A stretch of DNA of 64,000 bases from an uncultured Candidatus Saccharibacteria bacterium (GTDB lineage Bacteria; Patescibacteriota; Saccharimonadia; Saccharimonadales; CAYZZS01): NCBI GenBank assembly GCA_964620175.1, contig CAZUIL010000003.1, positions 4,281 through 68,280 on the forward strand. Reading direction: 5' to 3'. The notes below the pieces were generated by a model. That model was given only the letters and a program-made list of their open reading frames with translations. It was not told the origin of the DNA and did not search any database. Every line of letters begins with the position of its first letter. Within the stretch, counting starts at the first letter, position 1. The translations under genes and the position numbers were made by a program. Positions 3,673-35,772 of the stretch are shown in pieces.

Positions 3673-4413
3673 ATGGGCCTTTTCATCCTATCCTTTATCG
3701 CCGGTGTGTTGACGATAGCAGCGCCGTGCATTTTGCCACTCTTGCCAGTGGTAGTTGGGGGCTCGGTAGTGAACTCCTTAGGCAAACCAGCTAGTAAACA
3801 GTGGTACCGGCCAATTATTATAGCTATAAGCTTAGCAGCTTCTGTCGTCAGCTTTACGCTGTTGCTAAAGTCTACTACGGCACTCCTTGGCGTACCCCAG
3901 GCCGTATGGAACATTGTAGCCGGCGGCATCATATTGCTGTTCGGCGCCAGCTTACTCTGGCCTGCAGGCTGGGAGAGGCTGATGGTTGCGAGTAGGCTAC
4001 ATACCAGGTCGAACCAATTGCTCAAGGCCTCGTATGCCAAGCAAGGCCTCAAGCGGGATGTGTTGGTAGGGGCTGCGCTCGGACCGGTTTTTGCCAGCTG
4101 CAGCCCGACATACGCATTTATTGTTGCCGTAGTGTTGCCGGAGACCTTTACTAAAGGCGTAATTTACCTAATGTCATACGCAGCAGGGTTGGCAGCGACG
4201 CTACTGATAGTTTCGATCATTGGCCAATCGGCTGCCCGAAAACTGGGGTGGCTCAGCAATCCCAATGGTTGGATCCGGCGTATCGTTGGGCTAATGTTTT
4301 TGGCAGTTGGAATAACGGTCCTGTTTGGGTGGGACAGGTCGCTACAATCTTACATACTCGATCAAGGATGGTACGATCCAATTGCCGATCTTGAGCACAG
4401 GCTACGTGACTAA
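3673..4413 (+). CDS. ccdA: CcdA/DsbD-family thiol-disulfide electron transporter
   Basis: Polytopic membrane protein with the AAPCILPLLP motif. Starts immediately after the thioredoxin-like gene stop. Confidence 0.8.
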   Translation: MGLFILSFIAGVLTIAAPCILPLLPVVVGGSVVNSLGKPASKQWYRPIIIAISLAASVVSFTLLLKSTTALLGVPQAVWNIVAGGIILLFGASLLWPAGWERLMVASRLHTRSNQLLKASYAKQGLKRDVLVGAALGPVFASCSPTYAFIVAVVLPETFTKGVIYLMSYAAGLAATLLIVSIIGQSAARKLGWLSNPNGWIRRIVGLMFLAVGITVLFGWDRSLQSYILDQGWYDPIADLEHRLRD

Positions 4414-5639: not shown

Positions 5640-7370
5640 ATGAATACGGCAATTTCATTCATAAAACGCGCGAGGGCGAGCGGCTTGACTCTGACCTTCA
5701 TCGTGCTCGTGGTATGTTTGCTGACTGTTTTTCTGGCATGGCAGTCAGCACAAACAAGCTTGGAAGCGGCAATCGACGGCAGGTTGGCAACGCGGGTGCG
5801 GACCGTAGAGGCAGCTGTCCAAAAGCGGTTGGCGGTGTATGAGGCAATTCTGCTCAGTGGCAAATCGCTATACCAAGCGAACGAAAACTCTCTGTCACGG
5901 CAGCAATGGAAAAATTTCGTTGACACGCTCGACATCCGCGGCCAGCATCCCGGATTACAGGGGGTGGGGTACGCACTGGTCATAGCGCCCGGCGAATTGG
6001 CAGTCCATGAACAGCGGGTAAGAAACGAAGGCTTCCCTGGTTATTCGGTGCATCCGGCTGGCCCGAGGGACAGCTATACCTCTATCGTTTATCTTGAGCC
6101 CTTCGATAAGCGTAACCAACGGGCGTTCGGGTATGATATGTTTACCGAACCGATTCGCCGGGCAGCGATGGAAGCGGCCCGCGACTCGGGTGAAATAGCC
6201 ATTTCGCACACAGTAGAGCTAGTGCAGGAAACTGATACGGACATACAAGCGGGCTTTCTTATCTATGTTCCGGTATACGCCGTGCCGAACCCGGCATCGC
6301 CTGAAGAACGCCGCGCGTTGCTGGAGGGCTATATTTATGCACCTATCCGTGTCAGCGATCTTTTTGAAGGCCTTATCGGCAATGAGGTGCCAGATGGAAC
6401 ACATGTGGCTGTCTATGACGGGGCATCAACCAATGCGAAGTTGATATACGAATCAGACGGCCGCCAAAATCACGCAAGAAGCGTAACCCAGGAAATCCGC
6501 TTAGAGAATGTCGAGTGGACAATTGTAGTAAGTGCTAACGCCACCAGTTTGCAACTGCCGGACACGACGCAGCCTCAAAGGGTTATTTTCGGTGGATTGA
6601 TCGCGACTTTCCTGCTAGTCAGTTTTATCCAGTACGTCATACGTACCCGCGCGAAAGAATTAGAATTCAGCCGTCAAACAGAAATACAGCAAGCAAAGGA
6701 TGATTTACTCTCGCTGGCATCGCACCAGTTACGCACGCCTGCCACTGGCGTGAAACAATACATCAGCATGGTGCTGCAGGGCTACGCAGGGCGAATTACC
6801 AAACAGCAGCGGGCAATGCTGCAAAAGGCGTTTGTCAGCAACGAACGGCAAATTGAAATCATCAACCAAATCCTCCATGTCGCACGGTTGGAGACGGGCC
6901 GGATAAAACTCAGCAAGTCCAAGGAAAATATCGTCGCAATGGTCCAGGAACTCATCGATGAACAGGCCAGCGAGTTTGCAGCCAGGGAGCAGCAGGTAAC
7001 GTACAAGCCCCAGAAGAAGCGGCTGTACGCGCGGGTTGATAGCCAGTATATGCGGATGGCCATTGAAAACCTTTTAACCAATGCCAGTAAGTACACGCAT
7101 CCAGGCGGTAAAATTACAATTACCGTAAAGGAGGTTGACAATAAGATGGAAGTGAAAGTCAGCGATACCGGCGTGGGCATATCCGGCCAGGATCTGCCAA
7201 AGCTGTATGAAAAGTTTTCACGGATCGACAACGAGCTTTCAATGCAGGTAGGCGGCAGTGGGATCGGGCTGTACTTAGCGAAGCAGGTGGTAGATATGCA
7301 CCGGGGGTCTATTGCTGTTGATTCGACCCCGAGCCGGGGCAGTACTTTCACCATAAAATTCCCAAAGTGA
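5640..7370 (+). CDS. sensor histidine kinase with extracytoplasmic CHASE domain
   Basis: TM - CHASE-like region (YLEPFDKRNQRAFGYDMFTEPIRRAAMEAARDSG) - TM - HisKA (SHQLRTPATG) - HATPase (DTGVGI..., GGSGIGLYLAK). Confidence 0.85.
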   Translation: MNTAISFIKRARASGLTLTFIVLVVCLLTVFLAWQSAQTSLEAAIDGRLATRVRTVEAAVQKRLAVYEAILLSGKSLYQANENSLSRQQWKNFVDTLDIRGQHPGLQGVGYALVIAPGELAVHEQRVRNEGFPGYSVHPAGPRDSYTSIVYLEPFDKRNQRAFGYDMFTEPIRRAAMEAARDSGEIAISHTVELVQETDTDIQAGFLIYVPVYAVPNPASPEERRALLEGYIYAPIRVSDLFEGLIGNEVPDGTHVAVYDGASTNAKLIYESDGRQNHARSVTQEIRLENVEWTIVVSANATSLQLPDTTQPQRVIFGGLIATFLLVSFIQYVIRTRAKELEFSRQTEIQQAKDDLLSLASHQLRTPATGVKQYISMVLQGYAGRITKQQRAMLQKAFVSNERQIEIINQILHVARLETGRIKLSKSKENIVAMVQELIDEQASEFAAREQQVTYKPQKKRLYARVDSQYMRMAIENLLTNASKYTHPGGKITITVKEVDNKMEVKVSDTGVGISGQDLPKLYEKFSRIDNELSMQVGGSGIGLYLAKQVVDMHRGSIAVDSTPSRGSTFTIKFPK

Positions 7371-7439
7371 ATGTGGAAAATCTCACAGTTAAGTGGCTCA
7401 AGCTTGTTAGAATGGAACAAGTAAATAATAGAGACGATT

Positions 7440-7847
7440 ATGGCAAGGGCAGGCAAACCGTTGATTCTAGTTGTAGAGGACGAAACGACGCTGAACGAAG
7501 CGTACCAGACCATCCTTACAAAAGAAGGTTACCAAGTCGCGACTGCTTACAACGGCGAAGAAGCGATCGAAAAGATACGTAAGGACACGCCGGACCTAAT
7601 TTTGCTGGATTTGCGCATGCCGAAGATGGATGGGATCGAGTTCTTGCGGTCGATCGACGCGGAGAAAAACTTGCCAAAAACCAAAATAATAATCTTCAGT
7701 AACTATGACGCACAAAAGGAAATTGATGAAGCTTACCGGCTGGGAGCCCAACGCTACATTCTTAAAGCCTGGGCGACGCCAAAAGAACTGGTGCACTTGG
7801 TAAAAGAGACACTAAGCAAGGCGAAACCGCGAGCCAAGTCTAAATAG
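7440..7847 (+). CDS. single-domain response regulator (receiver only)
   Basis: 135 aa, CheY-like (ILVVEDE..., DLILLDLRMPKMDG, ...SNYD...). Confidence 0.85.
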   Translation: MARAGKPLILVVEDETTLNEAYQTILTKEGYQVATAYNGEEAIEKIRKDTPDLILLDLRMPKMDGIEFLRSIDAEKNLPKTKIIIFSNYDAQKEIDEAYRLGAQRYILKAWATPKELVHLVKETLSKAKPRAKSK

Positions 7848-13714: not shown

Positions 13715-14242
13715 TTAACTCTCCGCAAACTCTTTCAAAAACGCAGTAGCCTTTCTGACGACAGCCTTGGATTTGTGACGTTGCTGGATTTTGAGCAATG
13801 CCACCGTTTCATTTGCAGGAAACTTTCCCGCTTTTGTAAATTGCACGAGTGTTGCCATCCCGTTTGCTGCCACGATCCAGTCGACATCTTTGCTAGACAA
13901 AAGTATCTTAAGCCAGCGTTGGACTGCGCTTCTTTGTTGGCTTGTTAAAGCGACCTGGGCGAAGATCTGTGCCAGGTGCCACTGGATAGAAGGCTGGCTG
14001 CTTGTGGTAAGTTCGTCGAGCAACTTGTCAACGTAAGGCTGCAGCCATTCAGGATGCTCACGGCAGACCTTTTCCAGGGCATCCGCGGCCCGCATCCGTG
14101 TCCACGCGTTTCCATCGAACAAGCATTCGTACAATTCATCAAGCCTCGACCTGTCATTCAGCACCTCTGCAATAACTTCATTAACCAGGCCAAGTGAGTT
14201 AGATTTACCGCCAACGGTCAGCATTTCTGCGAAACTTCTCAT
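13715..14242 (-). CDS. HEAT-repeat protein, DNA alkylation repair enzyme-like
   Basis: All-helical 175-aa ORF resembling the DNA alkylation repair family by eye (NAWTRMRAADALEKV...). Confidence 0.45.
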   Translation of the reverse strand: MRSFAEMLTVGGKSNSLGLVNEVIAEVLNDRSRLDELYECLFDGNAWTRMRAADALEKVCREHPEWLQPYVDKLLDELTTSSQPSIQWHLAQIFAQVALTSQQRSAVQRWLKILLSSKDVDWIVAANGMATLVQFTKAGKFPANETVALLKIQQRHKSKAVVRKATAFLKEFAES

Positions 14243-14295
14243 TCCTTAATCATAACAATGAACAGTGAAAGCCAGGTGATAAAATAGGGGACATT

Positions 14296-14649
14296 ATGAC
14301 AAAACACAGAATTTACTCAATGAGTTTTGCAAGCGTTTACCCACTGTATGTAGCCAAAGCGGAGAAGAAGGGACGCAGTAAGGCAGAAGTTGATGAGATA
14401 ATCCGTTGGCTGACAGGGTACAGCCAACAGGGCTTGGAGGCCGAACTGCAGAAACAGACGGATTTTGAGACCTTTTTTGCTAAGGCGCCTGGGCTGAATC
14501 CTTCTCGCAGGTTAATCACCGGAATAATATGCGGCGTCCGGGTAGAAGACATCAAAGAACCGACTATGCAGGAAATCCGCTACTTGGATAAGCTCATCGA
14601 TGAGCTCGCCAAAGGCAAGGCGATGGAGAAAATCCTAAGAAAACCATGA
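14296..14649 (+). CDS. DUF2200-family protein
   Basis: [39 protein letters not shown] matches the family as I recall it. Confidence 0.65.
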
Positions 14650-14785
14650 TTTCTTGAAGTCAGGAAATATTCATAGAACGGAATTAATTAAGTAAGTAAG
14701 GTAAGTCCTGTGTAGATTTAGCAGTAAGAATTCTCATTATTTGGCAAGCCACAGGCTTTACTTTGATGAATTAATAATAACTTTA

Positions 14786-14837
14786 GCGGACGGGAGCTGT
14801 TTATGGTCTACAGACCTGATTACGAGCTCCCGTCCGC
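14786..14837. terminator. long hairpin, probable terminator between convergent genes
   Basis: 13-bp perfect arms GCGGACGGGAGCT (14786-14798) / AGCTCCCGTCCGC (14825-14837). 26-nt loop with an inner GGTC-TACA-GACC hairpin. Only weak T-tracts flank it. Confidence 0.45.
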
Positions 14838-14883
14838 ATTGTCTTCCGCTATTTGCTGGAAAAAATTGCTGCTAAAAGCATAC

Positions 14884-15372
14884 CTATTGCGTAAAAAAAG
14901 CTACAACCATAGCATATATTATCAGTGCAACTGCGTAGATTAAAATTACACCTGTAAAGATGAGAAGATCGCCGGTTGACGCGAGAACATCCCTTTCACC
15001 TATCGTCAAGGAGCCACCACTGATTATGATGCAAGTGACCAGGATGACCGCGATTGTTAGTAGACCGAGCACTAAAAAGGTATGTAATTGCAACGTTACA
15101 TTACTTGCATGCGCGTCACAATCACCAAACCTGCCAGTAAATAGAAACTTCCAAATACCAAGTGTATTAAAAGCTTCATCTGCGCAATTGCCTCTGGTAA
15201 CCTCTCGTCCACGGGCTATGCCTCCGATAAATTTAGGTGTACCAAAGAATATTATTGCTGCAGTGACGAGCCAAAGCGCGATGACTCGAACTAACGCTGT
15301 ATTTCGTGTCCGGGTATACACACTACCTTCTCCTTTTATAACGGTACTCATCCAGCAATCGGAAGTAGACAT
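14884..15372 (-). CDS. hypothetical membrane protein (162 aa) in AT-richer islet
   Basis: Four hydrophobic segments. Visibly lower GC than the neighbours. Confidence 0.5.
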   Translation of the reverse strand: MSTSDCWMSTVIKGEGSVYTRTRNTALVRVIALWLVTAAIIFFGTPKFIGGIARGREVTRGNCADEAFNTLGIWKFLFTGRFGDCDAHASNVTLQLHTFLVLGLLTIAVILVTCIIISGGSLTIGERDVLASTGDLLIFTGVILIYAVALIIYAMVVAFFTQ

Positions 15373-15745
15373 ATTGTACTTTTTATGTTGTAAAAATCCA
15401 AATCGGGCTATTTATTAAAAGACTTCAGGAAATGGTGATCTGAATATTCAAAAGGCACTATCAAGTTAAGTCTGCTGTTCGAATTAACAGTCGCTATTGA
15501 CTTAACGATGAGTTGTCAGATGGGGGAAAGTCGGGAATGTTCATGTACCGTTTTGGCATGGCGCTGCCGCGCAGCCTGCCTTCATGGGGATTTAAATCCA
15601 CGGTTGCCAGCTTATCGGTAACAAAATTTTTAGCGGCAATAAGGCGGCCTGCTATATACCCTAACCATCGTTGCCTGGAGTCATGTGGCTCTTGCTCGTG
15701 AAAATCTGCCAATTCGTTTAACCTGAATGATTATTCATGAATAAA

Positions 15746-15819
15746 TGGCTTCGGGACTAGGATTCGAACCTAGATTGCCAGGGCCAGAACCTGGTGTCCT
15801 ACCATTAGACGATCCCGAA
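15746..15819 (-). tRNA. tRNA-Gln (anticodon CUG), CCA encoded
   Basis: Hand-folded cloverleaf. Acceptor TTCGGGA/TCCCGAA (U1-A72), D arm GTCT-AATGGTA-GGAC, anticodon arm CCAGG-TTCTGGC-CCTGG, T arm CTAGG-TTCGAAT-CCTAG, discriminator G, CCA. Confidence 0.9.
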
Positions 15820-15921
15820 CTATCAGCATAAAAATCCTCAACATTATACAAAAATTTACTTCTTACGTACAGGTGTGCTACCCTTAGATAAAGCGCAAAC
15901 GTAAACCTATAAATAAAAATA

Positions 15922-16848
15922 ATGAAGACAATTTACTATAGCAATGCCCGGAATCCTGCGCTCCAAGTGCTTGAAAAGCCGAAGGTCGGCAGTTGGGTTC
16001 ATGTTGTCCAGCCAAGTGACGCCGAACTTTCTGAGCTTGCCGAAGAGCTGAAACTTGACCTCAACCTGCTCAAGGACGCCAACGATTTGTTTGAGACGCC
16101 ACGTGTAGAACAAGATGGCAAAAGCATCTACGTATATACACGGTACTGTTTTCCTTCGGGTACGGAGATTGCTACCGAGCCATTGCTCATAATCTACACG
16201 CCTGACTATCTGGTGACAATCATGCGCAACGAGTCCAGTGTACTGATGAACCTCACCGGCGGTTTGGTAACGGTGCTGACGACGCAACGCACCAAAACGT
16301 TTCTGCAGATATTATCCGCTGTCAACATGTCGTATACCCGCCATATCCATAAGATCAGCCGGCAAATCCTCAGCATCCGCGGCATGCTCCGCAAAACGTC
16401 GATTAACAACCAAGTGTTCATTGACTTTATCGACATCGAGGAAGACCTCAATGAAATCCTCTCTGCGCTGCAATCACAAGGCGTGATACTACGGACACTG
16501 CTGAGCGGCCGGTTCATTAAACTGTACGAAGAAGACGAAGACCTGATCGAGGACCTCTCGCTCGGTACGAACGAGCTTATCGAGCTGTCGCGCAGCCGGC
16601 TGGTCACTATTTCCACGACGCGGGAAGCCTACTCAACCATCATGGCCAATAACCTTAATAAGATATTTAAGCTGCTTACCAGTATCGGCATATTCCTCTC
16701 AATCCCAATGATTATTACCAGTTTGTACGGTATGAATGTCACGTTGCCACTCACGAACCACCCCGGAGCGTTTTGGATTATTGTCGCGCTGACCACGGGA
16801 TTTACAGCGTTTTCTATCTGGCTGTTCAAAAAACTACGCTGGCTGTAG
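15922..16848 (+). CDS. corA: CorA-family magnesium/cobalt transporter
   Basis: 308 aa, two C-terminal TM helices with the YGMN motif (SLYGMNV). Confidence 0.85.
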   Translation: MKTIYYSNARNPALQVLEKPKVGSWVHVVQPSDAELSELAEELKLDLNLLKDANDLFETPRVEQDGKSIYVYTRYCFPSGTEIATEPLLIIYTPDYLVTIMRNESSVLMNLTGGLVTVLTTQRTKTFLQILSAVNMSYTRHIHKISRQILSIRGMLRKTSINNQVFIDFIDIEEDLNEILSALQSQGVILRTLLSGRFIKLYEEDEDLIEDLSLGTNELIELSRSRLVTISTTREAYSTIMANNLNKIFKLLTSIGIFLSIPMIITSLYGMNVTLPLTNHPGAFWIIVALTTGFTAFSIWLFKKLRWL

Positions 16849-28600: not shown

Positions 28601-28744
28601 GTGGGTGCACAAGTAGTCCAGATCGTAACAGGCATAAGACAGCGTAGAGGCCGTGTCGCTCGTGACATTAATCAGGGATTACTCGAATATATGGAGCGTG
28701 ACGGGGTGGAAAATATTGAAGCATACGTTGGGGTAGCTGCTTAG
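28601..28744 (+). pseudogene. C-terminal remnant of a dihydroorotate/dihydropyrimidine dehydrogenase-like TIM-barrel flavoenzyme
   Basis: VGAQVVQIVTGIRQRRGRVARDINQGLLEYMERDGVENIEAYVGVAA resembles the family C-terminus (GA..VQ..T....G......I...L..[YF]M...G..SI.E..G.A). No upstream part of such a gene is present. Confidence 0.35.
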
Positions 28745-29238
28745 CGGTAGTTCGTAAAGCTGAGCGGGAAGTCAAAATCCTGCCCGTTTAGCAGCTGCAT
28801 AACAGCTTGCAAGTCATCTTTGCTGCCGCTCATCACACGGACAGCATCACCTTGTATTTGCGTCTTGACTTTCGGGAATTTGTCACGGATTAGACCAGTA
28901 ATTTTCTTGGCCTTTTCTTGGTCGAGCCCTTTCTTAAACGGCACTTCTTTGGTGGCTTGCATATTGCTCTCTGTCACGTCCCGGGAAGTGTCGAGTACCT
29001 TTTGGCTCTGGCCGCGTGCAGCGAGCTTTTTGCGGAAAATGTCAAGGATGGCATCTATTTGCCACTCACCGCTGCCGGTCACTTTAATGCCATTCTTGTC
29101 GCCGTCCAGCCACTCAACAGCAGCCGGTGTACCCTTAAAATCATAGCGGTTCGCCATCTCCCGCTGGGTTTGGTCCAGCACGTTGTTCATTTCCGCTTTG
29201 TCGTAATCACTAATCACATCAAATGAAAAGTTGGCCAT
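28741..29238 (-). CDS. yajQ: YajQ-family nucleotide-binding protein (UPF0234)
   Basis: MANFSFDVISDYDKAEMNNVLDQTQREMANRYDFKGT... The track ORF (322 aa) is over-extended; the true ATG is at 29238. Confidence 0.85.
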   Translation of the reverse strand: MANFSFDVISDYDKAEMNNVLDQTQREMANRYDFKGTPAAVEWLDGDKNGIKVTGSGEWQIDAILDIFRKKLAARGQSQKVLDTSRDVTESNMQATKEVPFKKGLDQEKAKKITGLIRDKFPKVKTQIQGDAVRVMSGSKDDLQAVMQLLNGQDFDFPLSFTNYR

Positions 29239-29301
29239 GCCACCAGTTTTGCATTCCTTTGGGGCAGATGCAAGCGGACTGGTGCAGCCTGGTAGCTGAA
29301 C

Positions 29302-29310
29302 TGCTATAAT
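29302..29310 (+). promoter_or_regulatory. extended -10 element TGcTATAAT upstream of pheS (leaderless geometry)
   Basis: 8 nt upstream of ATG 29319. No Shine-Dalgarno. Confidence 0.5.
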
Positions 29311-29318
29311 TTGATGAA

Positions 29319-30323
29319 ATGAACTATCAGAATCCTCGTATTGCTGAAATTGCGGGCACCCTAAAGAAGCGCCTGGCTCAGCAGGAAAACAAAGCCTCAG
29401 TGCTGCGGGCTGAAGAGCTTCGCTCTCTGTACGCCGAAATTCCCACGTTGCCAGCTGATGAGCGGGCAGCGTTCGGAAGAGAGCTGAACCAGCTGAAAGC
29501 TGAACTCGAGGCACTGGTAGCTGGTTCGGCAGAAGCAGACGAAGTACTGGCTCCGATTGACGTGACCGCGCCGTTCGACAGCAATACGGACCAGGCCAAA
29601 CGGCCGACGCTGCTGACTGCCGACAAGGGGAGCAAACATCCGCTGATGGCGGAAATAGAGAAGGTGCTCGACATATTTGCACGGATGGGCTTTGAAGCGG
29701 TGGAATCACGGCAGCTGGATGACGACTATCACATGTTCGGGTCGCTTAATTTTCCAGAAGGCCACCCAGCGCGCGATGACTACGATACCTTTATGACAGA
29801 GGAGGGCCTTATCCCGCCTGCTCACACCAGCACCATGCAGAACCGGGTGCTGCGGCAACAAAAAGGCAAGCTCGCTGTTGGCCAGCCGATTAGTGTTGTC
29901 ATCCCCGGCCGGGTCTTTAGGAACGAAGATCTGGATGCTACGCATGAGCACACGTTCTATCAACTCGAAGGCATCTATGTTGATAAGGGAATCCACGCCG
30001 GCCATCTGGTAGCGACGCTGAAGACGTTTCTGGAAGAATATTTTGGTGAGCAATTGGAGGTCAAGACCCAGCCGTTCTATTTCCCGTTTACCGAGCCAAG
30101 CTTCGAGTTTGCGATTAAGCGTCCGGGCCGGGACTGGCTTGAGTTGCTCGGTTGCGGCATGATCCATCCGAGCGTTTTGGCCGAAGGCGGTATCAATCCG
30201 AACGAATATACCGGCTTTGCCTGGGGCTTTGGTATCGACCGCCTGGTGCTTATGAAATACGGCATTGAAGACATCCGGCACTTCGAGTCCGGCAAACTAG
30301 CATTTCTGAGGCAATTCGCATGA
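29319..30323 (+). CDS. pheS: phenylalanine--tRNA ligase alpha subunit
   Basis: Class II motifs (FPEGHPARD, RVFRNEDLDATHEHTFYQLEG, GFAWGFGIDRL). Confidence 0.95.
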   Translation: MNYQNPRIAEIAGTLKKRLAQQENKASVLRAEELRSLYAEIPTLPADERAAFGRELNQLKAELEALVAGSAEADEVLAPIDVTAPFDSNTDQAKRPTLLTADKGSKHPLMAEIEKVLDIFARMGFEAVESRQLDDDYHMFGSLNFPEGHPARDDYDTFMTEEGLIPPAHTSTMQNRVLRQQKGKLAVGQPISVVIPGRVFRNEDLDATHEHTFYQLEGIYVDKGIHAGHLVATLKTFLEEYFGEQLEVKTQPFYFPFTEPSFEFAIKRPGRDWLELLGCGMIHPSVLAEGGINPNEYTGFAWGFGIDRLVLMKYGIEDIRHFESGKLAFLRQFA

Positions 30324-30724
30324 ACAGAGAGAGGCGTCCCGCTGAAGTTATTGATTTGCCCGTACGCGCGGCTGGGGAAAAGGATGCCGTCGCAATGCCT
30401 ATGGGCGAGGTTAGCGAGGATGCTGTTGTTATGAGCTCGTTTAGTAGCCGCCGGTTCCAGCAGCGTCTCGGAGAAGCCTTTAAGTCTGAAATGAGCCGCA
30501 AGCTTGGCCGTAGTGATGCTGAGAAGTTTGGCAAGCCTGAGTTTGATTCAAAAGCCTACAGTGCGGGCTTGGTGGGCCTGCAGGTTACCGTCGGTATGGA
30601 AGTGGCAACTGAAATGTTTGGTTCGCTTGATAACGCACGTAACTATTTGAACACGGTGCCGTGGCACCGTTCACAAAGTCGGGCTAACCATCCGTCGAAT
30701 TCGGGGGGCAAGCATGAAAGTTAG
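30320..30724 (+). CDS. hypothetical protein (134 aa) inserted between pheS and pheT
   Basis: ATGA overlap with the pheS stop; its end overlaps the pheT start by 11 nt. The ORF fills the whole 390-nt gap. Codon usage resembles the neighbours by eye. Confidence 0.55.
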   Translation: MNRERRPAEVIDLPVRAAGEKDAVAMPMGEVSEDAVVMSSFSSRRFQQRLGEAFKSEMSRKLGRSDAEKFGKPEFDSKAYSAGLVGLQVTVGMEVATEMFGSLDNARNYLNTVPWHRSQSRANHPSNSGGKHES

Positions 30725-33230
30725 CCTGAACTGGATTAAGGAATTTACTGACGTTCGCCTGCCGGTACAAACGCTGGTAGAAAAGATTGGCGGGCAGCTT
30801 GGGGCGGTGGAGGAGGTGATTGAGCTTGGCAAAAAGTATGAAGGCGTCATCGTGGCCAAAGTGGTGTCCTGCCAAAAGCATCCTAACGCGGACAAGCTGA
30901 GCATATGCCTGATTGATGACGGAGGAAAGGCTGAGGCGGTTACCAGAGACGATAGCGGTTACGTACAAGTAGTATGCGGTGCCCCGAATGTACGGGAAAC
31001 GCTATATGTAGCGTGGATACCCCCAGGTGTAGTGGTGCCGAACACGTTTGATAAGGCCCCGTTTACCCTTGAAGCGAAGGAAATACGCGGTATCGTCAGT
31101 AATGGCATGATTGCCAGTGCCCACGAATTAGCGCTAAGCGACGACCATACCGGTATCGTCGAACTCGAGGCTGACAACGCGCAGCCGGGCAAGCCACTGG
31201 CGGAGCTGCTGCAGCTTGATGATTTTATCATTGATATCGAAAATAAGATGTTTACCCGCCGGCCCGATTGTTTCGGGCAGCTCGGTGTTGCCCGGGAAAT
31301 TGCCGGCATTACCAACCAGGCATTTACATCGCCGGCTTGGTATTTGGATAAGCCGGTGTTCAAAAATGCTGGCAGGGCGCATTTGGCGGTTAATAATGCG
31401 CTGCCGGAGCAAGTGCCTCGGTTTGCCGCTGTCATCCTGGATGGTGTGAAAGTGGGGCCGAGTCCGCTCTGGCTGCAGAGTTACCTTGTCAGGGTAGGGA
31501 TACGGCCGGTAAACAACGTAGTTGATATTACGAATTACCTAATGATGCTGACCGGCCAGCCGCTCCATGCATACGACGCTGATAAGCTTCGGACGCTTAG
31601 CTCGTCTGAGGAGTACATCAGCCTTGAAACGCGCTTGTCAAAGCCGGGCGATACGCTGACGTTGCTTGGCGGCAAGGTGGTGACCTTCCGTGACGACAAG
31701 TCCATACTCATTACCTCGAATGACACACCGGTAGGTATCGGCGGTGTTATGGGTGGTGCGGCAACAGAAGTTGACGACTCTACCACAAGTGTCGTGCTGG
31801 AGTGCGCCACGTTCGATATGTACAGTATCCGGCGGACTAGCATGCAGTACGGGCTGTTCACCGAAGCGGTTACCAGGTTTACGAAAAACCAGTCGCCAAT
31901 GCAAAACGCCAAAATCGTCGCGAAAGCTATCGGCCTGTTCAACGAATTGGCTGGTGCCGAGCAGGCCAGCACAGTAATTGACAGCGCGCACAACCTGCCG
32001 GCACCGCCGACTATCCGTACGACTGCCGCCTTCATTAATGAGCGGCTCGGCCTTACGCTCGAATCGCACGAGATCGCCAGGCTATTGCAGAATGTAGAGT
32101 TTGGCGTACAGGTGGAAGCGGAAAGCCTGGTAATCATGCCGCCGTTTTGGCGCACGGATCTGCACATTCCCGAAGATATTGTTGAAGAGGTGGGTCGGCT
32201 GTACGGATACGATCATTTGCCGCAAGCGCTGCCGACACGGAGTCTGAAACCGGCTGTTAATAACGACCTGATCGCATTGAAGCAAAGAGTACGGGAAATC
32301 CTGAAAGAGGCTGGTGCCAATGAAGTGTTGACGTACAGTTTCGTACCCGCCAGCTTAATGGAAAAAACCGGCCAAAACCCTGCTAACGCCTATAAAATCA
32401 GCAACGCCCTCAGCCCTGGCCTGCAATATGTCCGCATGAGCTTACTGCCAAGTTTGCTTGAGAAAATCCACCCGAACGTAAAAGCAGGGGCCGGCGAATT
32501 TGCACTTTTTGAGATTAACCAGACACACGGCAAAGACTATATCAGCAAAGAAGACGGGCTGCCGATTGAGGAGCACCGCGTCGCGTTGGTGTTTGCGGCC
32601 GACGATAAAACCGCGGCTTCGAATTACGGAGGTGCCCCATACTTCCTGGTGCGGCGGTACGTAGACCATTTGCTAAACCGCCTCGGCATTGATCCAACCT
32701 ATGTGTCCGCCAAGGGCTATGTCCCGGAAATGGAGATCAGCAAAGCAGCAATCGCGCCGTTCAACCAAGATAGGGCAGCTTTGATAAAGGACCAGGACGG
32801 CCGGTTTATCGGCGAAATTGGCGAGTTTAAGGACAGTGTGCGGCGGGGACTGAAACTGCCGGCGTTTGTTGCAGGGTGCGAGCTTGACATCAAGCAGCTG
32901 CTTAAGCTTGCCGGCCAGGCGTCGCCGTACGTACCGCTGTCACGCTATCCTGGCGTAGAGCAAGATATTTGTCTGGCCGTTCCCCTGGACGCCGAGTACG
33001 CAGCAGTGTCGACGTTTGTGCGCGGGCAGCTGCAGCAGCAGTCCATGCCGACACGCACTTCTTTTACCTTAACTCCGATCGATATTTACCAAAAGGCCGA
33101 CCGCAAGCAAATAACGTTCCGGATCAATGTTGCTTCGCACGAACGCACACTCAGGACCGAAGAAGTAAGCAAACTGCTTGATACGGTTGCCCGCGCTGCA
33201 AAGTTGCAGCTCGGCGCCGAACGCATCTAA
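30714..33230 (+). CDS. pheT: phenylalanine--tRNA ligase beta subunit
   Basis: MKVSLNWIKEF... N-terminus, tRNA-binding, B3/4 and B5 regions, 838 aa. GGGGGG Shine-Dalgarno upstream. Confidence 0.95.
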   Translation: MKVSLNWIKEFTDVRLPVQTLVEKIGGQLGAVEEVIELGKKYEGVIVAKVVSCQKHPNADKLSICLIDDGGKAEAVTRDDSGYVQVVCGAPNVRETLYVAWIPPGVVVPNTFDKAPFTLEAKEIRGIVSNGMIASAHELALSDDHTGIVELEADNAQPGKPLAELLQLDDFIIDIENKMFTRRPDCFGQLGVAREIAGITNQAFTSPAWYLDKPVFKNAGRAHLAVNNALPEQVPRFAAVILDGVKVGPSPLWLQSYLVRVGIRPVNNVVDITNYLMMLTGQPLHAYDADKLRTLSSSEEYISLETRLSKPGDTLTLLGGKVVTFRDDKSILITSNDTPVGIGGVMGGAATEVDDSTTSVVLECATFDMYSIRRTSMQYGLFTEAVTRFTKNQSPMQNAKIVAKAIGLFNELAGAEQASTVIDSAHNLPAPPTIRTTAAFINERLGLTLESHEIARLLQNVEFGVQVEAESLVIMPPFWRTDLHIPEDIVEEVGRLYGYDHLPQALPTRSLKPAVNNDLIALKQRVREILKEAGANEVLTYSFVPASLMEKTGQNPANAYKISNALSPGLQYVRMSLLPSLLEKIHPNVKAGAGEFALFEINQTHGKDYISKEDGLPIEEHRVALVFAADDKTAASNYGGAPYFLVRRYVDHLLNRLGIDPTYVSAKGYVPEMEISKAAIAPFNQDRAALIKDQDGRFIGEIGEFKDSVRRGLKLPAFVAGCELDIKQLLKLAGQASPYVPLSRYPGVEQDICLAVPLDAEYAAVSTFVRGQLQQQSMPTRTSFTLTPIDIYQKADRKQITFRINVASHERTLRTEEVSKLLDTVARAAKLQLGAERI

Positions 33231-33233
33231 CGC

Positions 33234-33262
33234 TTGCAAATCACTCAATATGAGTATAGAAT
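33234..33262 (+). promoter_or_regulatory. sigma70-type promoter at the pheT 3' end, reading into the structured spacer
   Basis: TTGCAA (33234-33239), 17-nt spacer, TAGAAT (33257-33262). Confidence 0.45.
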
Positions 33263-33403
33263 AATGTTCGTTTGGTTGAGTCCCGGAGGATTCCCAAAAC
33301 GTACTTTGACAGGCGTGGTTACAGGGAATGCATAGGTAATGGCAGTGCTGTCCGGTTGCGTTTAGCGACCCGACACCACTGCTTTTATTCTTTGACATTC
33401 CCA

Positions 33404-33496
33404 GCACGTGTAGCTCAATTGGTTAGAGCCCCATAACATGCCTTGGCTCAAGTCCATGGCAGGTATGGGTGTATGGGTTCGAATCCCATCGCGTGC
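33404..33496 (+). tRNA. aberrant 93-nt tRNA-like gene with a 21-nt extension of the anticodon arm (apical loop CUCAAGU, CAA)
   Basis: Acceptor 33404-33410/33490-33496. D arm GCTC-AATTGGTTA-GAGC. T arm ATGGG-TTCGAAT-CCCAT. Anticodon stem 33431-33435/33464-33468 encloses 28 nt that stack into ~10 more pairs capped by a 7-nt loop. No CCA encoded. Confidence 0.6.
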
Positions 33497-33666
33497 GCTA
33501 TGAGAGCGAGCTCGGCATACAGCTTTGCAGCTCAGGAAGCTGGGGACTTCCTTCGGCGTTAGCCGGCTCTCACCTTCGCGCGAGTATCTACTCGCCATGC
33601 TCGGGTCCCGCGGGTACCTGCTTACTGTGCCCCTCGTAAGCTAGGTCCGCCCGCCCGCGGGACCCG
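33497..33666 (+). ncRNA. structured RNA element of unknown class immediately 3' of the tRNA-like gene
   Basis: Hand-found helices: 33501-33507/33566-33572; 33520-33525/33537-33542; 33580-33585/33590-33595; a 13-bp perfect GC-rich pair 33602-33614/33654-33666 with nested 33616-33625/33638-33648. No ORF. Confidence 0.35.
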
Positions 33667-33696
33667 TCTTCGCCATAAGCTACTCTGGAGTAAAAA

Positions 33697-33843
33697 ATGC
33701 CAGATGAAACGGACGAGCCCGTTACCCTGAAACAAGGACGGTGCATTAACAAGCATACGACCTATTTCGTACCATCAGCACCACCCGGGCAGAGGGTGCG
33801 CTGCTACAAATGTGACGAAGAGGTTACAGTCCCATTTTCATAG
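33697..33843 (+). CDS. possible 48-aa Cys/His small protein (zinc-ribbon-like; hand-found)
   Basis: GGAG 7 nt upstream of ATG. MPDETDEPVTLKQGRCINKHTTYFVPSAPPGQRVRCYKCDEEVTVPFS (C-x3-H ... C-x2-C). Confidence 0.35.
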   Translation: MPDETDEPVTLKQGRCINKHTTYFVPSAPPGQRVRCYKCDEEVTVPFS

Positions 33844-33849
33844 CAGAGC

Positions 33850-33916
33850 AAGACGGCAGTGAGCATGCGAAGGCTCAATTTGGGTTCATCCCAAATGCAC
33901 CACGCCTGTCCGTCTT
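33850..33916 (+). other. two-tier hairpin downstream of the small ORF
   Basis: AAGACGGCAG (33850-33859) pairs with CTGtCCGTCTT (33906-33916), one bulge. Inner stem 33878-33884/33890-33896. No U-tract follows. Confidence 0.4.
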
Positions 33917-33983
33917 CCCAAGCAAGCTTATCCAGCTTATTTAGGAAGGCGGCCCAACCACTATTTAAGCAAGTTACTTAGCG

Positions 33984-33992
33984 TGTTAAGCT
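33984..33992 (+). promoter_or_regulatory. extended -10 element TGtTAAGCT (leaderless geometry) upstream of the ABC exporter
   Basis: 7 nt upstream of ATG 34000. No Shine-Dalgarno. Confidence 0.35.
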
Positions 33993-33999
33993 TTAAGCA

Positions 34000-35772
34000 A
34001 TGAAGCACATTTGGCGGATTATCCGGTTTTCGGGAAGTTTGTGGCGGTACTACGCTGCAATTTCAATTTTTACGGTTTTGCTGAGCTTGATGAGCCTGCT
34101 CCAACCGCTGTTTACCGGTTGGGCGATTGATGAGATACGGCTTGGTACTGACGCTCATGTCGGCTATGTCGCGATGCTGGCAGTGGCGATTTTTGCGCTG
34201 GATCTAAGCGCAACAGTCTTCAGTAATATTAGCGGCTATTTAGGCGATCAAATGTCCGCCAAACTGAACAAACTATTGAGCCACCGGTATTTCGAACATT
34301 TATTGACGCTGCCCCAACGTTACTTCGATACTGAACTCTCCGGTACGATAATCAACCGTCTCAACCGTTCCATAACGCAAATCACCACGTTCATGCAAAT
34401 GATGAGCAACAACTTTTTGCAGTTCATTTTCAGTACGTTGTTTTCGCTCGTTGTCGTGGCGTTCATCAGTTGGCCGGTAGCGGCGATGCTGTTTGCCCTG
34501 TATCCGATTTACGTGTGGCTTACCTTCCGTACCAGCAACCGGTGGCAGAAATACCAGGAACAGAAAAACCGGCACTTGGATATTGCAACAGGACGGTTTG
34601 CTGAGGCAATTGGCCAGATAAAGGTCGTCAAAAGCTTTATCCAGGAGAGGCGTGAACTTGGCTTCTTTAACAGGCATATGGATGCGTACGCCGCGGTGAA
34701 CCGTCCCCAGTCCAGATTTTGGCACGTTCGCGACGTGCAACGGCGTTTAATCCTGAACGTCATCTTCCTGGGTGTTTTTATGTACGTGTTTGTGCAGGGG
34801 GCGCAAGGCATGCTTTCGCCGGGTGAAGCGGTAACGCTTATACTCTACGCGATGCAGATCCGTATCCCTATCTTTACCATCAGCTTTTTGGTTGAAAACA
34901 CCCAACGGGCAGTTACTGACAGCAAGGACTATTTTGAAATTATGAATATCAGGCCGCAGATAGAAGATGCAGCAGCAGCCAAGCCGCTGAAAGTAACCGC
35001 CGGCCAGGTGGTGTTTGATGACGTGACCTTTGGTTACGATAAGGGGCAGATGGTGCTAAAGGGTATGTCATTTGCGATCGAGCCTGATACCAAGGTCGCA
35101 CTGGTGGGGGAAAGCGGTGAGGGCAAGACGACGCTTACTAACTTGCTCATGCGCCTCTACGAGCCGCAGCGCGGAACAATCATGATTGACAGCCAGGACA
35201 TCCGGCTTGTCACACAAAAAAGCCTGCGCCAAAATATTGGCGTTGTATTCCAGGACCCTGCCCTGTTTAGCGGCACTATTAAGGAAAATATCGGCTATGC
35301 GAAGCCGGGGGCTGATGGCGAAGCGATTATAGCCGCCGCTAAGGCAGCCAATGCCCATGAGTTTATTACGAAGTTTGAGAAGGGATACGATACAGAAATT
35401 GGCGAGCGGGGCTTGAAACTGAGCGGCGGACAGAAACAGCGTATCGCGATTGCACGTGCCTTGCTCAAGGACGCGCCGATACTGATTTTGGACGAAGCGA
35501 CGAGCAGTTTGGATAGCCGCAGTGAAGCAATGGTGCAAGAGGCTTTGGAGCGGCTCATGAAAGGACGTACTACTATAATTATTGCCCATCGCTTGAGCAC
35601 CATCCAAAACGTTGACCAAATCATTACCATCGCCAATGGCAAGATTGGCGAGATGGGGACGCCGCGCAAGTTGGCAGCGAGCGGCGGTATTTACGCCCAG
35701 TTGCTGAAGTTGCAACAAGGGGGGTCAGAAGCAAACAAAAAGAAACTCAAGCAATTTGAAATTTCGGCATAA
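34000..35772 (+). CDS. ABC exporter, fused permease/ATPase (MsbA/type I exporter-like)
   Basis: Six N-terminal TM helices. Walker A GESGEGKTT, signature LSGGQKQR, Walker B ILILDEATS. Confidence 0.9.
   Translation: MKHIWRIIRFSGSLWRYYAAISIFTVLLSLMSLLQPLFTGWAIDEIRLGTDAHVGYVAMLAVAIFALDLSATVFSNISGYLGDQMSAKLNKLLSHRYFEHLLTLPQRYFDTELSGTIINRLNRSITQITTFMQMMSNNFLQFIFSTLFSLVVVAFISWPVAAMLFALYPIYVWLTFRTSNRWQKYQEQKNRHLDIATGRFAEAIGQIKVVKSFIQERRELGFFNRHMDAYAAVNRPQSRFWHVRDVQRRLILNVIFLGVFMYVFVQGAQGMLSPGEAVTLILYAMQIRIPIFTISFLVENTQRAVTDSKDYFEIMNIRPQIEDAAAAKPLKVTAGQVVFDDVTFGYDKGQMVLKGMSFAIEPDTKVALVGESGEGKTTLTNLLMRLYEPQRGTIMIDSQDIRLVTQKSLRQNIGVVFQDPALFSGTIKENIGYAKPGADGEAIIAAAKAANAHEFITKFEKGYDTEIGERGLKLSGGQKQRIAIARALLKDAPILILDEATSSLDSRSEAMVQEALERLMKGRTTIIIAHRLSTIQNVDQIITIANGKIGEMGTPRKLAASGGIYAQLLKLQQGGSEANKKKLKQFEISA

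Follow-up and report, generated by a model that had tools for sequence, protein, structure and literature searches.

A tRNA-like unit with an enlarged anticodon arm is embedded in a large structured RNA of Saccharibacteria that belongs to an apparently undescribed family

Results

Within a stretch of 64,000 nucleotides (nt) from an uncultured Candidatus Saccharibacteria bacterium (contig CAZUIL010000003.1 of assembly GCA_964620175.1, forward-strand positions 4,281 to 68,280; hereafter the window), a tRNA-like unit at window positions 33404-33497 (+) carries an anticodon arm lengthened by 21 nt. We found that this unit does not stand alone as a gene. A structured RNA of about 640-680 nt, located at approximately 33270-33951 (+), contains it as one arm of its central multi-way junction, and this RNA belongs to a Saccharibacteria family of large structured RNAs that has apparently not been described before. 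The family has an rrn-like 5′ end and a modular interior, and lies outside the coordinates of the original prediction, a description of the tRNA-like unit made from the sequence alone. The explanation that we favor, with a probability of about 0.55 for the whole, is that the unit is an optional, non-decoding module of the large RNA, for which the role of a processing handle is the likeliest. We place high confidence in the following observations, taken together: the unit is embedded, a family exists, there is covariation, and the anticodon arm varies.

A covarying helix closes the RNA in diverse Saccharibacteria

The family sample comprised 15 copies from 14 genomes; one locus (L067) holds two copies in tandem, and the window holds one. 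Locus labels such as L004, L005 and L064 denote Saccharibacteria loci retrieved through similarity to PheT. ARAGORN detected almost no tRNA after pheT in the retrieved loci. Reading the loci side by side revealed a shared upstream motif, TTTGGTTGAG...TTCCCAAA...GTACTTTGACAGG, and showed that the sequence after GACAG, which differs in every genome, has a perfect reverse complement several hundred nt downstream, as in the arm pairs GACAGGCGTGGT/ACCACGCCTGTC of the window, GACAGATATGATGAT/ATCATCATATCTGTC of L064 and GACAGGTATGAAAATA/TATTTTCATACCTGTC of L049. The first 13 candidate loci had been picked on the 5′ motif only, the closing helix playing no part in the choice, and 11 of them had an 11-16-base-pair (bp) complement 470-785 nt away. 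A motif-free detector, which sought RACAG followed by at least 11 nt (N) with an exact reverse complement 400-1100 nt downstream in 80 loci and the whole window, returned essentially this family only. It added L017, L020 and L036 to the sample, and a relaxed version added L037.

In the alignment of the closing helix (14 copies, three of them found through that helix), 93.4% of cells are paired, compared with 26-46% when the partner strand is slid. Ten of the 14 pairs are double-changed (47 cells), and none of 500 shuffles attained the observed covariation score. Unconstrained minimum free energy (MFE) folds recovered both the closing helix and P1, the 5′ hairpin of the RNA, in the first 11 copies as well as in L017, L020, L036 and L037, and all 11 copies compared formed a more stable structure on the sense strand than on the antisense strand, the difference being 4-77 kcal/mol. 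Conservation of sequence is limited to P1, a UUGACAG box and the base of the long hairpin P3, while the interior is conserved as structure only. RNAalifold found no structure in a MAFFT alignment of the 5′ region, which was too gappy, so that the support for P1 comes from the per-sequence folds. The two tandem copies of L067 (8320-8890 and 8985-9560) have diverged: the first contains a small open reading frame (ORF) and a T hairpin only, and the second an acceptor and T minihelix with the ORF absent.

The tRNA-like unit folds as a cloverleaf with an enlarged anticodon arm

ARAGORN, Rfam and RNAfold reproduced the position, strand and cloverleaf parts given in the original prediction. ARAGORN called a 95-nt tRNA at 33404-33498, forced to "tRNA-Met" with the anticodon CAT at position 34. 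The Rfam tRNA model RF00005 was covered end to end at 49.1 bits, compared with a gathering score of 29 bits, with 28 nt replacing the 7-nt anticodon loop. RNAfold yielded a cloverleaf with a lengthened anticodon arm (-37.8 kcal/mol). Its plus-strand parts are a 7-bp acceptor stem (33404-33410/33490-33496, including one U-G pair), a D arm with G18G19 (33413-33429), an anticodon stem (33431-33435/33464-33468) and a T arm with a UUCRANY loop (33473-33489). The discriminator G33497, the lack of an encoded CCA and the variable region of 4 nt are as originally described. The acceptor stem is coaxial with the T stem-loop, so that the two form a minihelix of 7 + 5 bp with a canonical T loop (GUUCGAAUC), the shape of an RNase P/Z substrate. 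In the partition function of the window, the acceptor pairs have probabilities of 0.9-1.0. The whole 94-nt unit has a z-score of -3.3, with none of 200 shuffles folding as well, and the extended arm by itself is modestly non-random (z = -1.9; 10 of 200 shuffles equally good).

Two features of a canonical tRNA are absent from this cloverleaf: a 7-nt anticodon loop that has U33 and a purine at position 37 and is closed by a 5-bp stem, and an anticodon conserved among orthologues. In place of the 7-nt loop there is an insert of 28 nt (33436-33463, +) with about eight further pairs, which is not conserved in the family. RNAfold recovered the inner helices of the original prediction (33439-33442/33458-33461 and 33444-33446/33454-33456, +) and departed from it at the cap: an additional pair, C33447-G33452, suggests that the arm may end in a 4-nt loop instead of the 7-nt anticodon-like loop CUCAAGU.

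Homologous modules conserve the acceptor and T stems and vary in the anticodon arm

T-loop hairpins with a 5-bp stem and a UUCRANN loop are present in six of 14 copies, always 125-275 nt past the 5′ closing arm, where the background is 0.05 per 600 nt. A weaker hairpin in L060 brings the module to seven of 15 copies, the homologous modules being those of L005, L064, L049, L060, L067a and L067b (the first and second copies of L067). L037 has no T-loop motif on the plus strand. The full tRNA frame is found in the window, L005 and L064, which share A3-U70, U6, G7-C66, U8A9, a GCUC/GAGC D stem, G18G19 and a discriminator G. In L049, L060 and L067b the acceptor stem and T arm are kept and the D and anticodon arms are swapped for other hairpins, and L067a has an extended T hairpin only. 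Across the modules the bases after the acceptor stem are R-C-Y, never CCA.

The minihelix of acceptor stem and T arm, compared in the six copies from six species that have both stems, is 95.8% paired, as opposed to 35-53% when one strand is slid; ten of its 12 pairs are double-changed, and none of 500 shuffles matched this. The anticodon arm, by contrast, is the least conserved part of the module. The L064 module (6739-6809) is a canonical 71-nt tRNA that scores 64.8 bits with the Rfam model, has a 5-bp anticodon stem and a CUAUCAA loop with the anticodon AUC, and would be named tRNA-Asp(AUC) by annotation pipelines. The L005 module (7307-7490, about 185 nt) has a 5-bp anticodon stem, UCCAA/UUGGA, followed by 37 nt with a different inner helix, and a structured D-loop insertion of about 85 nt as well; both ARAGORN and Rfam missed it.

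The extension is neither an intron nor a conserved device

We went through every contiguous 15-29-nt deletion that can be made between the D and T stems, and none gave a 5-bp stem with a 7-nt loop carrying U33 and R37. A relaxed search gave two solutions, each requiring a 4-bp stem and nonsense loops. A strict bulge-helix-bulge (BHB; hBHBh) search of the tRNA-like unit found none, and Rfam gave no signal for group I introns (RF00028 or related) at E ≤ 10 across 33150-34100; the insert is only 21 nt. In the original prediction no canonical 37/38 intron or BHB motif could be drawn, and its suggestion of a novel short intervening sequence is not supported. The ARAGORN reading of an intron-type tRNA-Met(CAU) was rejected because it requires A33 and leaves position 26 missing. 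An archaeal/eukaryal-type short intron was rejected for the absence of a BHB motif and of a canonical loop upon 15-29-nt excision, and a group I tRNA intron of the kind found in Patescibacteria for the size of the insert and the absent Rfam signal.

The suggestion that the unit is a pseudogene created by a 21-nt insertion is not supported as it was put forward: the homologous modules show compensatory changes in the acceptor and T stems, which indicates that the structure is under selection and argues against a decaying pseudogene. Nor is the extension itself conserved in orthologues, given that the L064 module is a normal 71-nt tRNA and that of L005 is differently expanded. We read the 21 extra nt as a helix expansion, specific to this lineage, of an arm that does not decode; the added helical turn is probably incidental. 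Closer relatives were sought for a comparison of the extension, but the best PheT identity anywhere was 58% and the three nearest loci have no RNA. Of the roles originally proposed, a non-decoding mimic, for example an RNase P/Z handle for flanking RNAs, fares best: the unit is embedded in a structured, covarying RNA and its minihelix is conserved, and cleavage is the part that stays conditional. We also considered a kissing interaction between the arm-cap loop CUCAA and the conserved P1 strand UUGAG, which would have accounted for the added helical turn, and rejected it because shuffled sequences match this complementarity in 25% of cases for the window and 40% for L005; it was nominally significant in L064 alone.

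Predicted architecture of the RNA in the window

All features given here are on the plus strand. A sigma70-like promoter (TTGCAA-17-TAGAAT, 33234-33262) identified by a promoter scan places the predicted transcription start at about 33269-33271. P1 (UUUGG-UU-GAGUCC...GGAUUC-CCAAA, 33269-33301), recovered by MFE folds, contains the GGUUGAG...UUCC motif that is kept across members, and occupies the place that boxB has in an rrn leader. It is followed by a boxA-like motif (GUACUUUGACA, 33301-33311) that matches the consensus at nine of 11 positions and whose last bases also begin the closing helix. The 5′ arm of that helix (GACAGGCGUGGU, 33308-33319) is the exact complement of its 3′ arm (ACCACGCCUGUC, 33899-33910); the 12-bp helix is supported by the covariation in 14 copies and by partition-function pair probabilities of 0.72-1.0. 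P3 (33324-33402) is a long irregular hairpin with a z-score of -7.3 and none of 200 shuffles as good. Long hairpins occur at the same place in all members, and the P3 base UAGGCARU/AYUGUCUA is conserved in several of them. This base (33334-33391 in the window; also L004, L005, L020, L036, L039 and L049) contains a fixed G-U pair, which is C-U in L049. The CUGUC in its 3′ strand occurs in the closing helix too and might mark a repeated protein-binding site.

Downstream of the tRNA-like module (33404-33497), which is defined by ARAGORN, the Rfam match, the fold, the homologous modules and the minihelix covariation, MFE folding predicts a three-way junction domain (UGAGAGC.../...GCUCUCA, 33501-33572) that encloses two hairpins; in L005 and L064, too, the module is followed by a comparable GC-rich domain. 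A predicted 3′ domain (33573-33873) is organized by the long-range helices 33573-33579/33867-33873 and 33597-33602/33861-33866 and includes a hairpin at 33580-33595 and a 13-bp GC-rich hairpin at 33603-33665. With this domain we compare a motif of CCUUCGCG plus hairpin, which was seen by eye in L004, L005, L028 and L067b. A small predicted hairpin (33878-33896) lies just 5′ of the 3′ closing arm, and a terminal hairpin (CGUCUUCC...GGAAGGCG, 33911-33951) follows that arm in the MFE fold. It is terminator-like, with the U-run absent in the window.

Transcription signals and a boxA-like motif

Sigma70-like promoters were found in 15 of 15 copies, with up to 12 of 12 promoter positions matched in L036 and 11 of 12 in L039. 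The -10 box mostly ends 42-48 nt ahead of the RACAG box, a placement from which transcription should begin at the conserved UUUGGUUGAG. The hairpin that immediately follows the 3′ arm takes the form of a classic terminator in L005, L054 and L064, with YAUCUCCC...GGGAGAU ahead of a U-run.

A conserved 11-mer, GUACUUUGACA in the window and GUACUUUAACA in L054, resembles boxA. We searched with the proteobacterial consensus GYTCTTTAANA (PMC5725501), which may not be that of Saccharibacteria. The family mean was 8.5 of 11 matches to it, and eight of 15 copies reached at least 9/11 at a single aligned position, for which the background rate at the same threshold is 1.0e-3 per position over 1.75 Mb. 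It is known that the boxA consensus drifts with phylogenetic distance, and boxA-dependent antitermination also serves other long untranslated transcripts, such as CRISPR arrays (PMC7665894). In rrn leaders, a boxB hairpin is followed by boxA and then by boxC, the 5′ strand of a long-range stalk, which stays at the RNA exit channel until synthesis of the enclosed RNA is over, when it is "delivered" to its complement (PMC8632103). P1 (33269-33301), the boxA-like motif (33301-33311) and the closing arm (33308-33319) follow one another in this nut-like order. From the sequence, there is an even chance that the 11-mer functions as a boxA; as such it would be a NusB/S10 site. Boxes resembling it (TTTGACAGG and TTTAACAGG) also occur directly after pheT at about 6539 in L036 and about 6646 in L012, without a closing helix. 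A complete RNA lies 2.4 kb further downstream in L036, past a gene for a collagen-like Gly-X-Y repeat protein. These two boxes may be remnants of the 5′ end of the RNA.

A small ORF within the closing helix

An ORF scan predicted a 48-amino-acid (aa) ORF at 33697-33843 (+) with a GGAG Shine-Dalgarno sequence (MPDETDEPVTLKQGRCINKHTTYFVPSAPPGQRVRCYKCDEEVTVPFS). Cysteine-rich ORFs of 48-50 aa with Shine-Dalgarno sequences occur at the same relative place in L060 (6900-7046), in L067a (8664-8816 in L067 coordinates) and in L028 (7113-7265), and the small ORFs of these four copies, out of 15, share a (V/L)TCxxCxN(T/S)..V motif; the other 11 copies have none. BLASTP comparisons among them gave E = 0.035 for the window and L060 and E = 2e-4 for L067a and L028, and Pfam returned sub-threshold generic zinc-ribbon matches only. 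The region of the small ORF is predicted to be less tightly structured than the remaining RNA, and the ORF may be a second optional module.

Genomic context and distribution

In the window the RNA lies in 770 nt of non-coding DNA between pheT (30714-33230) and an ABC exporter gene (34000-35772). Upstream are pheS (29319-30323) and, between pheS and pheT, a 134-aa ORF (30320-30724, +) that overlaps both genes and has no Pfam match. In relatives the gap between pheS and pheT is occupied by a 150-aa ORF without a match (L217), a GDSL lipase gene (L219) or nothing (L218). A YajQ/DUF520 ORF at 28741-29709 (-) encodes 322 aa with the domain in residues 162-322 only; the YajQ proteins of relatives have 165-177 aa, so the true start of the window ORF is probably internal. 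The only other tRNA in the window is a tRNA-Gln(CUG) at 15746-15819 (-), with bacterial-type U1-A72/G73. It sits in the lowest-GC stretch of the window (14001-16000; GC 0.44, compared with about 0.52).

All relatives of the window PheT belong to Saccharibacteria (TM7, candidate phyla radiation (CPR)/Patescibacteria), the best identity being 57% in a search of one genome per species and 58% in a collection of 5.8 billion proteins. The RNA is located right after pheT in ten of 13 carrier loci, in L005 with one ORF interposed, and an orthologous exporter of about 590 aa is encoded next on the same strand in nine of 13. In L036, L037, L049 and L067 the RNA lies 2-2.5 kb further downstream, past another gene, and does not adjoin the exporter. 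Carriers are scattered over a star-like PheT tree, on which only L004, L020 and L036 cluster, all of them without the tRNA module. The three nearest relatives of the window retain the gene order GH-YajQ-pheS-pheT-exporter/RND-FKBP.

No blastn match was found in 50,697 phage records, and two pattern scans of IMG/VR gave chance matches only, none with a closing helix at no more than two mismatches. On these grounds a phage origin was rejected. A metagenome scan with a narrow pattern gave 16 chance matches and no members. The distribution fits an old chromosomal RNA gene that has often been lost or relocated. It is not that of a mobile element, because the arms are unconserved in sequence and the copy number is one.

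Comparison with known RNAs

Rfam (version 15) detected no family but tRNA in the window at gathering thresholds. At E ≤ 10 within 33150-34100 it returned, besides tRNA, only YrlA at 21.9 bits and a chance microRNA match, and six member loci scanned at E ≤ 1 likewise matched no family other than tRNA. GOLLD, ROOL, OLE, HEARO and raiA were therefore rejected as identities of the large RNA, as far as covariance models tell, and T-box, tmRNA, SRP RNA, RNase P RNA and 6S RNA were rejected for want of Rfam support. Full-text literature searches found no description of such an RNA in Saccharibacteria or CPR.

Spacer tRNAs in rRNA operons are processing signals. The RNA resembles rrn operons in that a tRNA-shaped unit, which could serve RNase P/Z as a cutting signal, is embedded in a non-coding transcript, and in its order of elements: a hairpin, a boxA-like 11-mer and, next, the 5′ strand of a long-range helix, which pairs with a partner past the enclosed structured RNA (PMC8632103). 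The two differ in several respects. The enclosed RNA is about 590 nt long here and is not similar to 16S, 23S or 5S rRNA, for which Rfam gave no match; the tRNA-like unit lies inside the stalk instead of between two stalks and is non-decoding; and the stalk has only 12-16 bp and overlaps the boxA-like motif. With GOLLD and ROOL the RNA shares a large size (0.5-0.8 kb), a structured non-coding nature and a combination of conserved and variable parts (PMC12286853; PMC5737381), and the GOLLD linker "sometimes" carries covalently linked tRNAs (PMC12286853). Unlike them, the RNA described here is chromosomal at a conserved locus, was not found in viral contigs and embeds a unit that is not a normal tRNA.

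The acceptor/T minihelix of mascRNA serves as an RNase P/Z processing signal in MALAT1. The mascRNA and menRNA of MALAT1 and NEAT1 are likewise tRNA-shaped, non-decoding units within long non-coding RNAs (PMC8457004); they come from eukaryotes, are located close to the 3′ end and possess a small anticodon arm, whereas the present module is bacterial and internal, has an enlarged arm and would be cleaved only by analogy. The bacterial non-coding RNA YrlA also joins a tRNA-like domain to a long helix, which its two ends form. However, YrlA has about 110 nt and a permuted tRNA-like domain, and the match to RF02553 (21.9 bits, compared with a gathering score of 69 bits; E = 0.061) came from the D arm only. 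No TROVE domain (Ro/Rsr) was seen in the proteins annotated at 26-40 kb of the window, although no search was aimed at Ro. tmRNA, too, keeps the acceptor stem and T arm and has its anticodon arm replaced, and some members of the present family join the module to an ORF-bearing structured RNA. In tmRNA, however, the acceptor stem is formed by the 5′ and 3′ ends of the RNA itself, whereas the module here is internal and complete, with acceptor strands 86 nt apart, and neither ARAGORN nor Rfam made a tmRNA call in the window. Finally, group I introns at position 35/36 of Patescibacteria tRNA genes are self-splicing and longer than 200 nt (PMC13011429). They come from the same phylum, and their anticodon-loop inserts also cause standard tools to mis-call tRNA genes (PMC13011429), but the insert described here has 21 nt and no intron signature, and its tRNA frame is non-decoding.

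Discussion

In the explanation that we favor, the RNA would be an autonomous unit laid out as a miniature rrn-type operon, with its own promoter, P1 and the boxA-like motif as a nut-like site, a closing helix that would join the 5′ and 3′ ends of the RNA, and a terminal hairpin. The boxA-like site would recruit Nus factors, which would shield the long untranslated transcript and help the distant arms to meet. Given a non-decoding module, the anticodon arm would be a peripheral helix free to vary in length, and the 21 extra nt would represent neutral or structural growth of that helix in a module that stopped decoding or never did. Selection preserves an acceptor stem that stacks on the T arm and its canonical T loop, together with the D arm, and so the elbow, in three lineages. 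Acceptor/T minihelices are determinants for RNase P, RNase Z, the CCA-adding enzyme and other readers of tRNA shape; with this part maintained, the module is most likely a processing handle. Cuts at its two ends would split the transcript into a 5′ piece, with P1, the 5′ arm and P3, and a 3′ piece, and the two would remain paired by the closing helix. Cleavage at the module ends by RNase P/Z is the tentative part of this proposal, with the odds leaning somewhat against it.

Several observations weigh against this explanation. The window's three nearest relatives, at 58% PheT identity, have no room for the RNA and no closing helix. Half of the family has no tRNA-like module, which implies that whatever the module does is dispensable for the core function of the RNA. 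Spacing in the window is tight, with 1 nt between P3 and G1 and 3-4 nt between the discriminator and the next domain, and such gaps give RNase P and RNase Z little single-stranded leader and trailer to work with. At 12-16 bp across the family, the closing helix is shorter than classic RNase III stalks, and the boxA assignment leans on a consensus from Proteobacteria that may not be Saccharibacteria's own. Both covariation counts lean toward structure, owing to the copies recruited through the closing helix and, for the minihelix, to strands that were picked by eye.

The tight joins would be natural if the module were never excised and its L shape were instead a structural or docking element, for a protein or RNA that binds the elbow or for tertiary packing, with a longer arm serving as a longer strut. 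Large RNAs are commonly built with T-loop modules, the peripheral arms differ in length much as expansion segments do, and the window, L005 and L064 have an intact D/T elbow. In four members, however, the D arm is lost and the acceptor/T minihelix kept, which fits minihelix-reading enzymes better than elbow docking, and the one tertiary pairing examined, between loop and P1, was unsupported; we regard a purely structural arm as unlikely, though worth serious consideration. That the unit is a structured mRNA or leader for the zinc-ribbon ORF or the ABC exporter, with the module as a cis-regulatory sensor or stabilizer, appears improbable. The Cys-rich ORFs with Shine-Dalgarno sequences at one relative position in four members and the co-oriented exporter in nine of 13 loci would fit such a leader, but the ORF is missing from 11 of 15 copies, an intrinsic terminator precedes the exporter in several copies, the RNA does not adjoin the exporter in four loci, and pheT-exporter synteny is kept in relatives without the RNA. 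Quite improbable, too, is genuine tRNA cargo of the kind carried by the GOLLD linker (PMC12286853), with a functional copy in L064 and degenerating ones in the window and L005. The canonical form and 64.8-bit score of the L064 module invite this idea, but its anticodon is AUC, and the members all differ in the anticodon region, with covariation in the acceptor and T stems, a pattern that points to selection on shape and not to a decoder or a decaying pseudogene. To our knowledge, moreover, A34 is not used for Asp in bacteria.

Patchy occurrence on the PheT tree, a variable interior between conserved ends and the tandem pair in L067 are what a non-autonomous mobile DNA element might show, its terminal inverted repeats forming the closing helix and the tRNA-like part being captured cargo or an integration target. 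Repeats recognized by a transposase would be conserved, however, whereas the arms differ in every genome beyond GACAG and are still complementary. There is one copy in 64 kb, at a locus that is conserved after pheT in ten of 13 cases, where conserved repeats, multiple copies and a target-site duplication would mark a mobile element. Folding is strand-asymmetric, the promoter and P1 lie outside the repeats, and viral contigs gave no members, all of which makes a mobile element highly improbable. It is scarcely credible that the unit is a true tRNA gene, for tRNA-Met(CAU) or the tRNA-Leu(CAA) originally considered, split by a new type of short intron. ARAGORN does make an intron-type call, and unusual tRNA introns are known in Patescibacteria (PMC13011429). 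Those introns, however, are self-splicing group I introns of more than 200 nt, for which Rfam gave no match here; a canonical loop is not restored by any 15-29-nt deletion, and a BHB motif is absent; the ARAGORN reading requires A33 and omits position 26; and the homologous modules hold unrelated inserts or none.

Large, intricately folded bacterial RNAs are rare, and every class that we know of so far (RNase P RNA, group I/II introns, OLE, GOLLD, ROOL and raiA) has brought new biochemistry or structures. The genomes of CPR bacteria and Saccharibacteria are tiny and strongly reduced, and the retention in them of a non-coding unit of about 650 nt with its own promoter argues for function. With chances that we place just short of even, the present RNA may be the first sighting of a Saccharibacteria-specific class of "ornate" stable RNAs of 0.5-0.8 kb. 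Such RNAs would be made by rrn-like, Nus/boxA-assisted transcription followed by processing guided by tRNA shape, with a modular interior able to accommodate a tRNA mimic or a small zinc-ribbon gene. Should the boxA-like site prove genuine, long-range helices outside rRNA and CRISPR arrays would also be subject to Nus-dependent "RNA chaperoning".

The family also provides a natural series in which the tRNA shape is kept while the anticodon and D arms expand, are swapped or vanish, and this series helps to ask which parts of a tRNA the processing enzymes read. Modules of this kind will be mis-annotated as intron-containing tRNAs, as in the "tRNA-Met" of the window, or as tRNAs with odd anticodons, as in the "tRNA-Asp AUC" of L064, and thereby distort the tRNA inventories of CPR bacteria. 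In these ultra-small epibionts, the large RNA could be the core of a ribonucleoprotein or of an RNA-only assembly.

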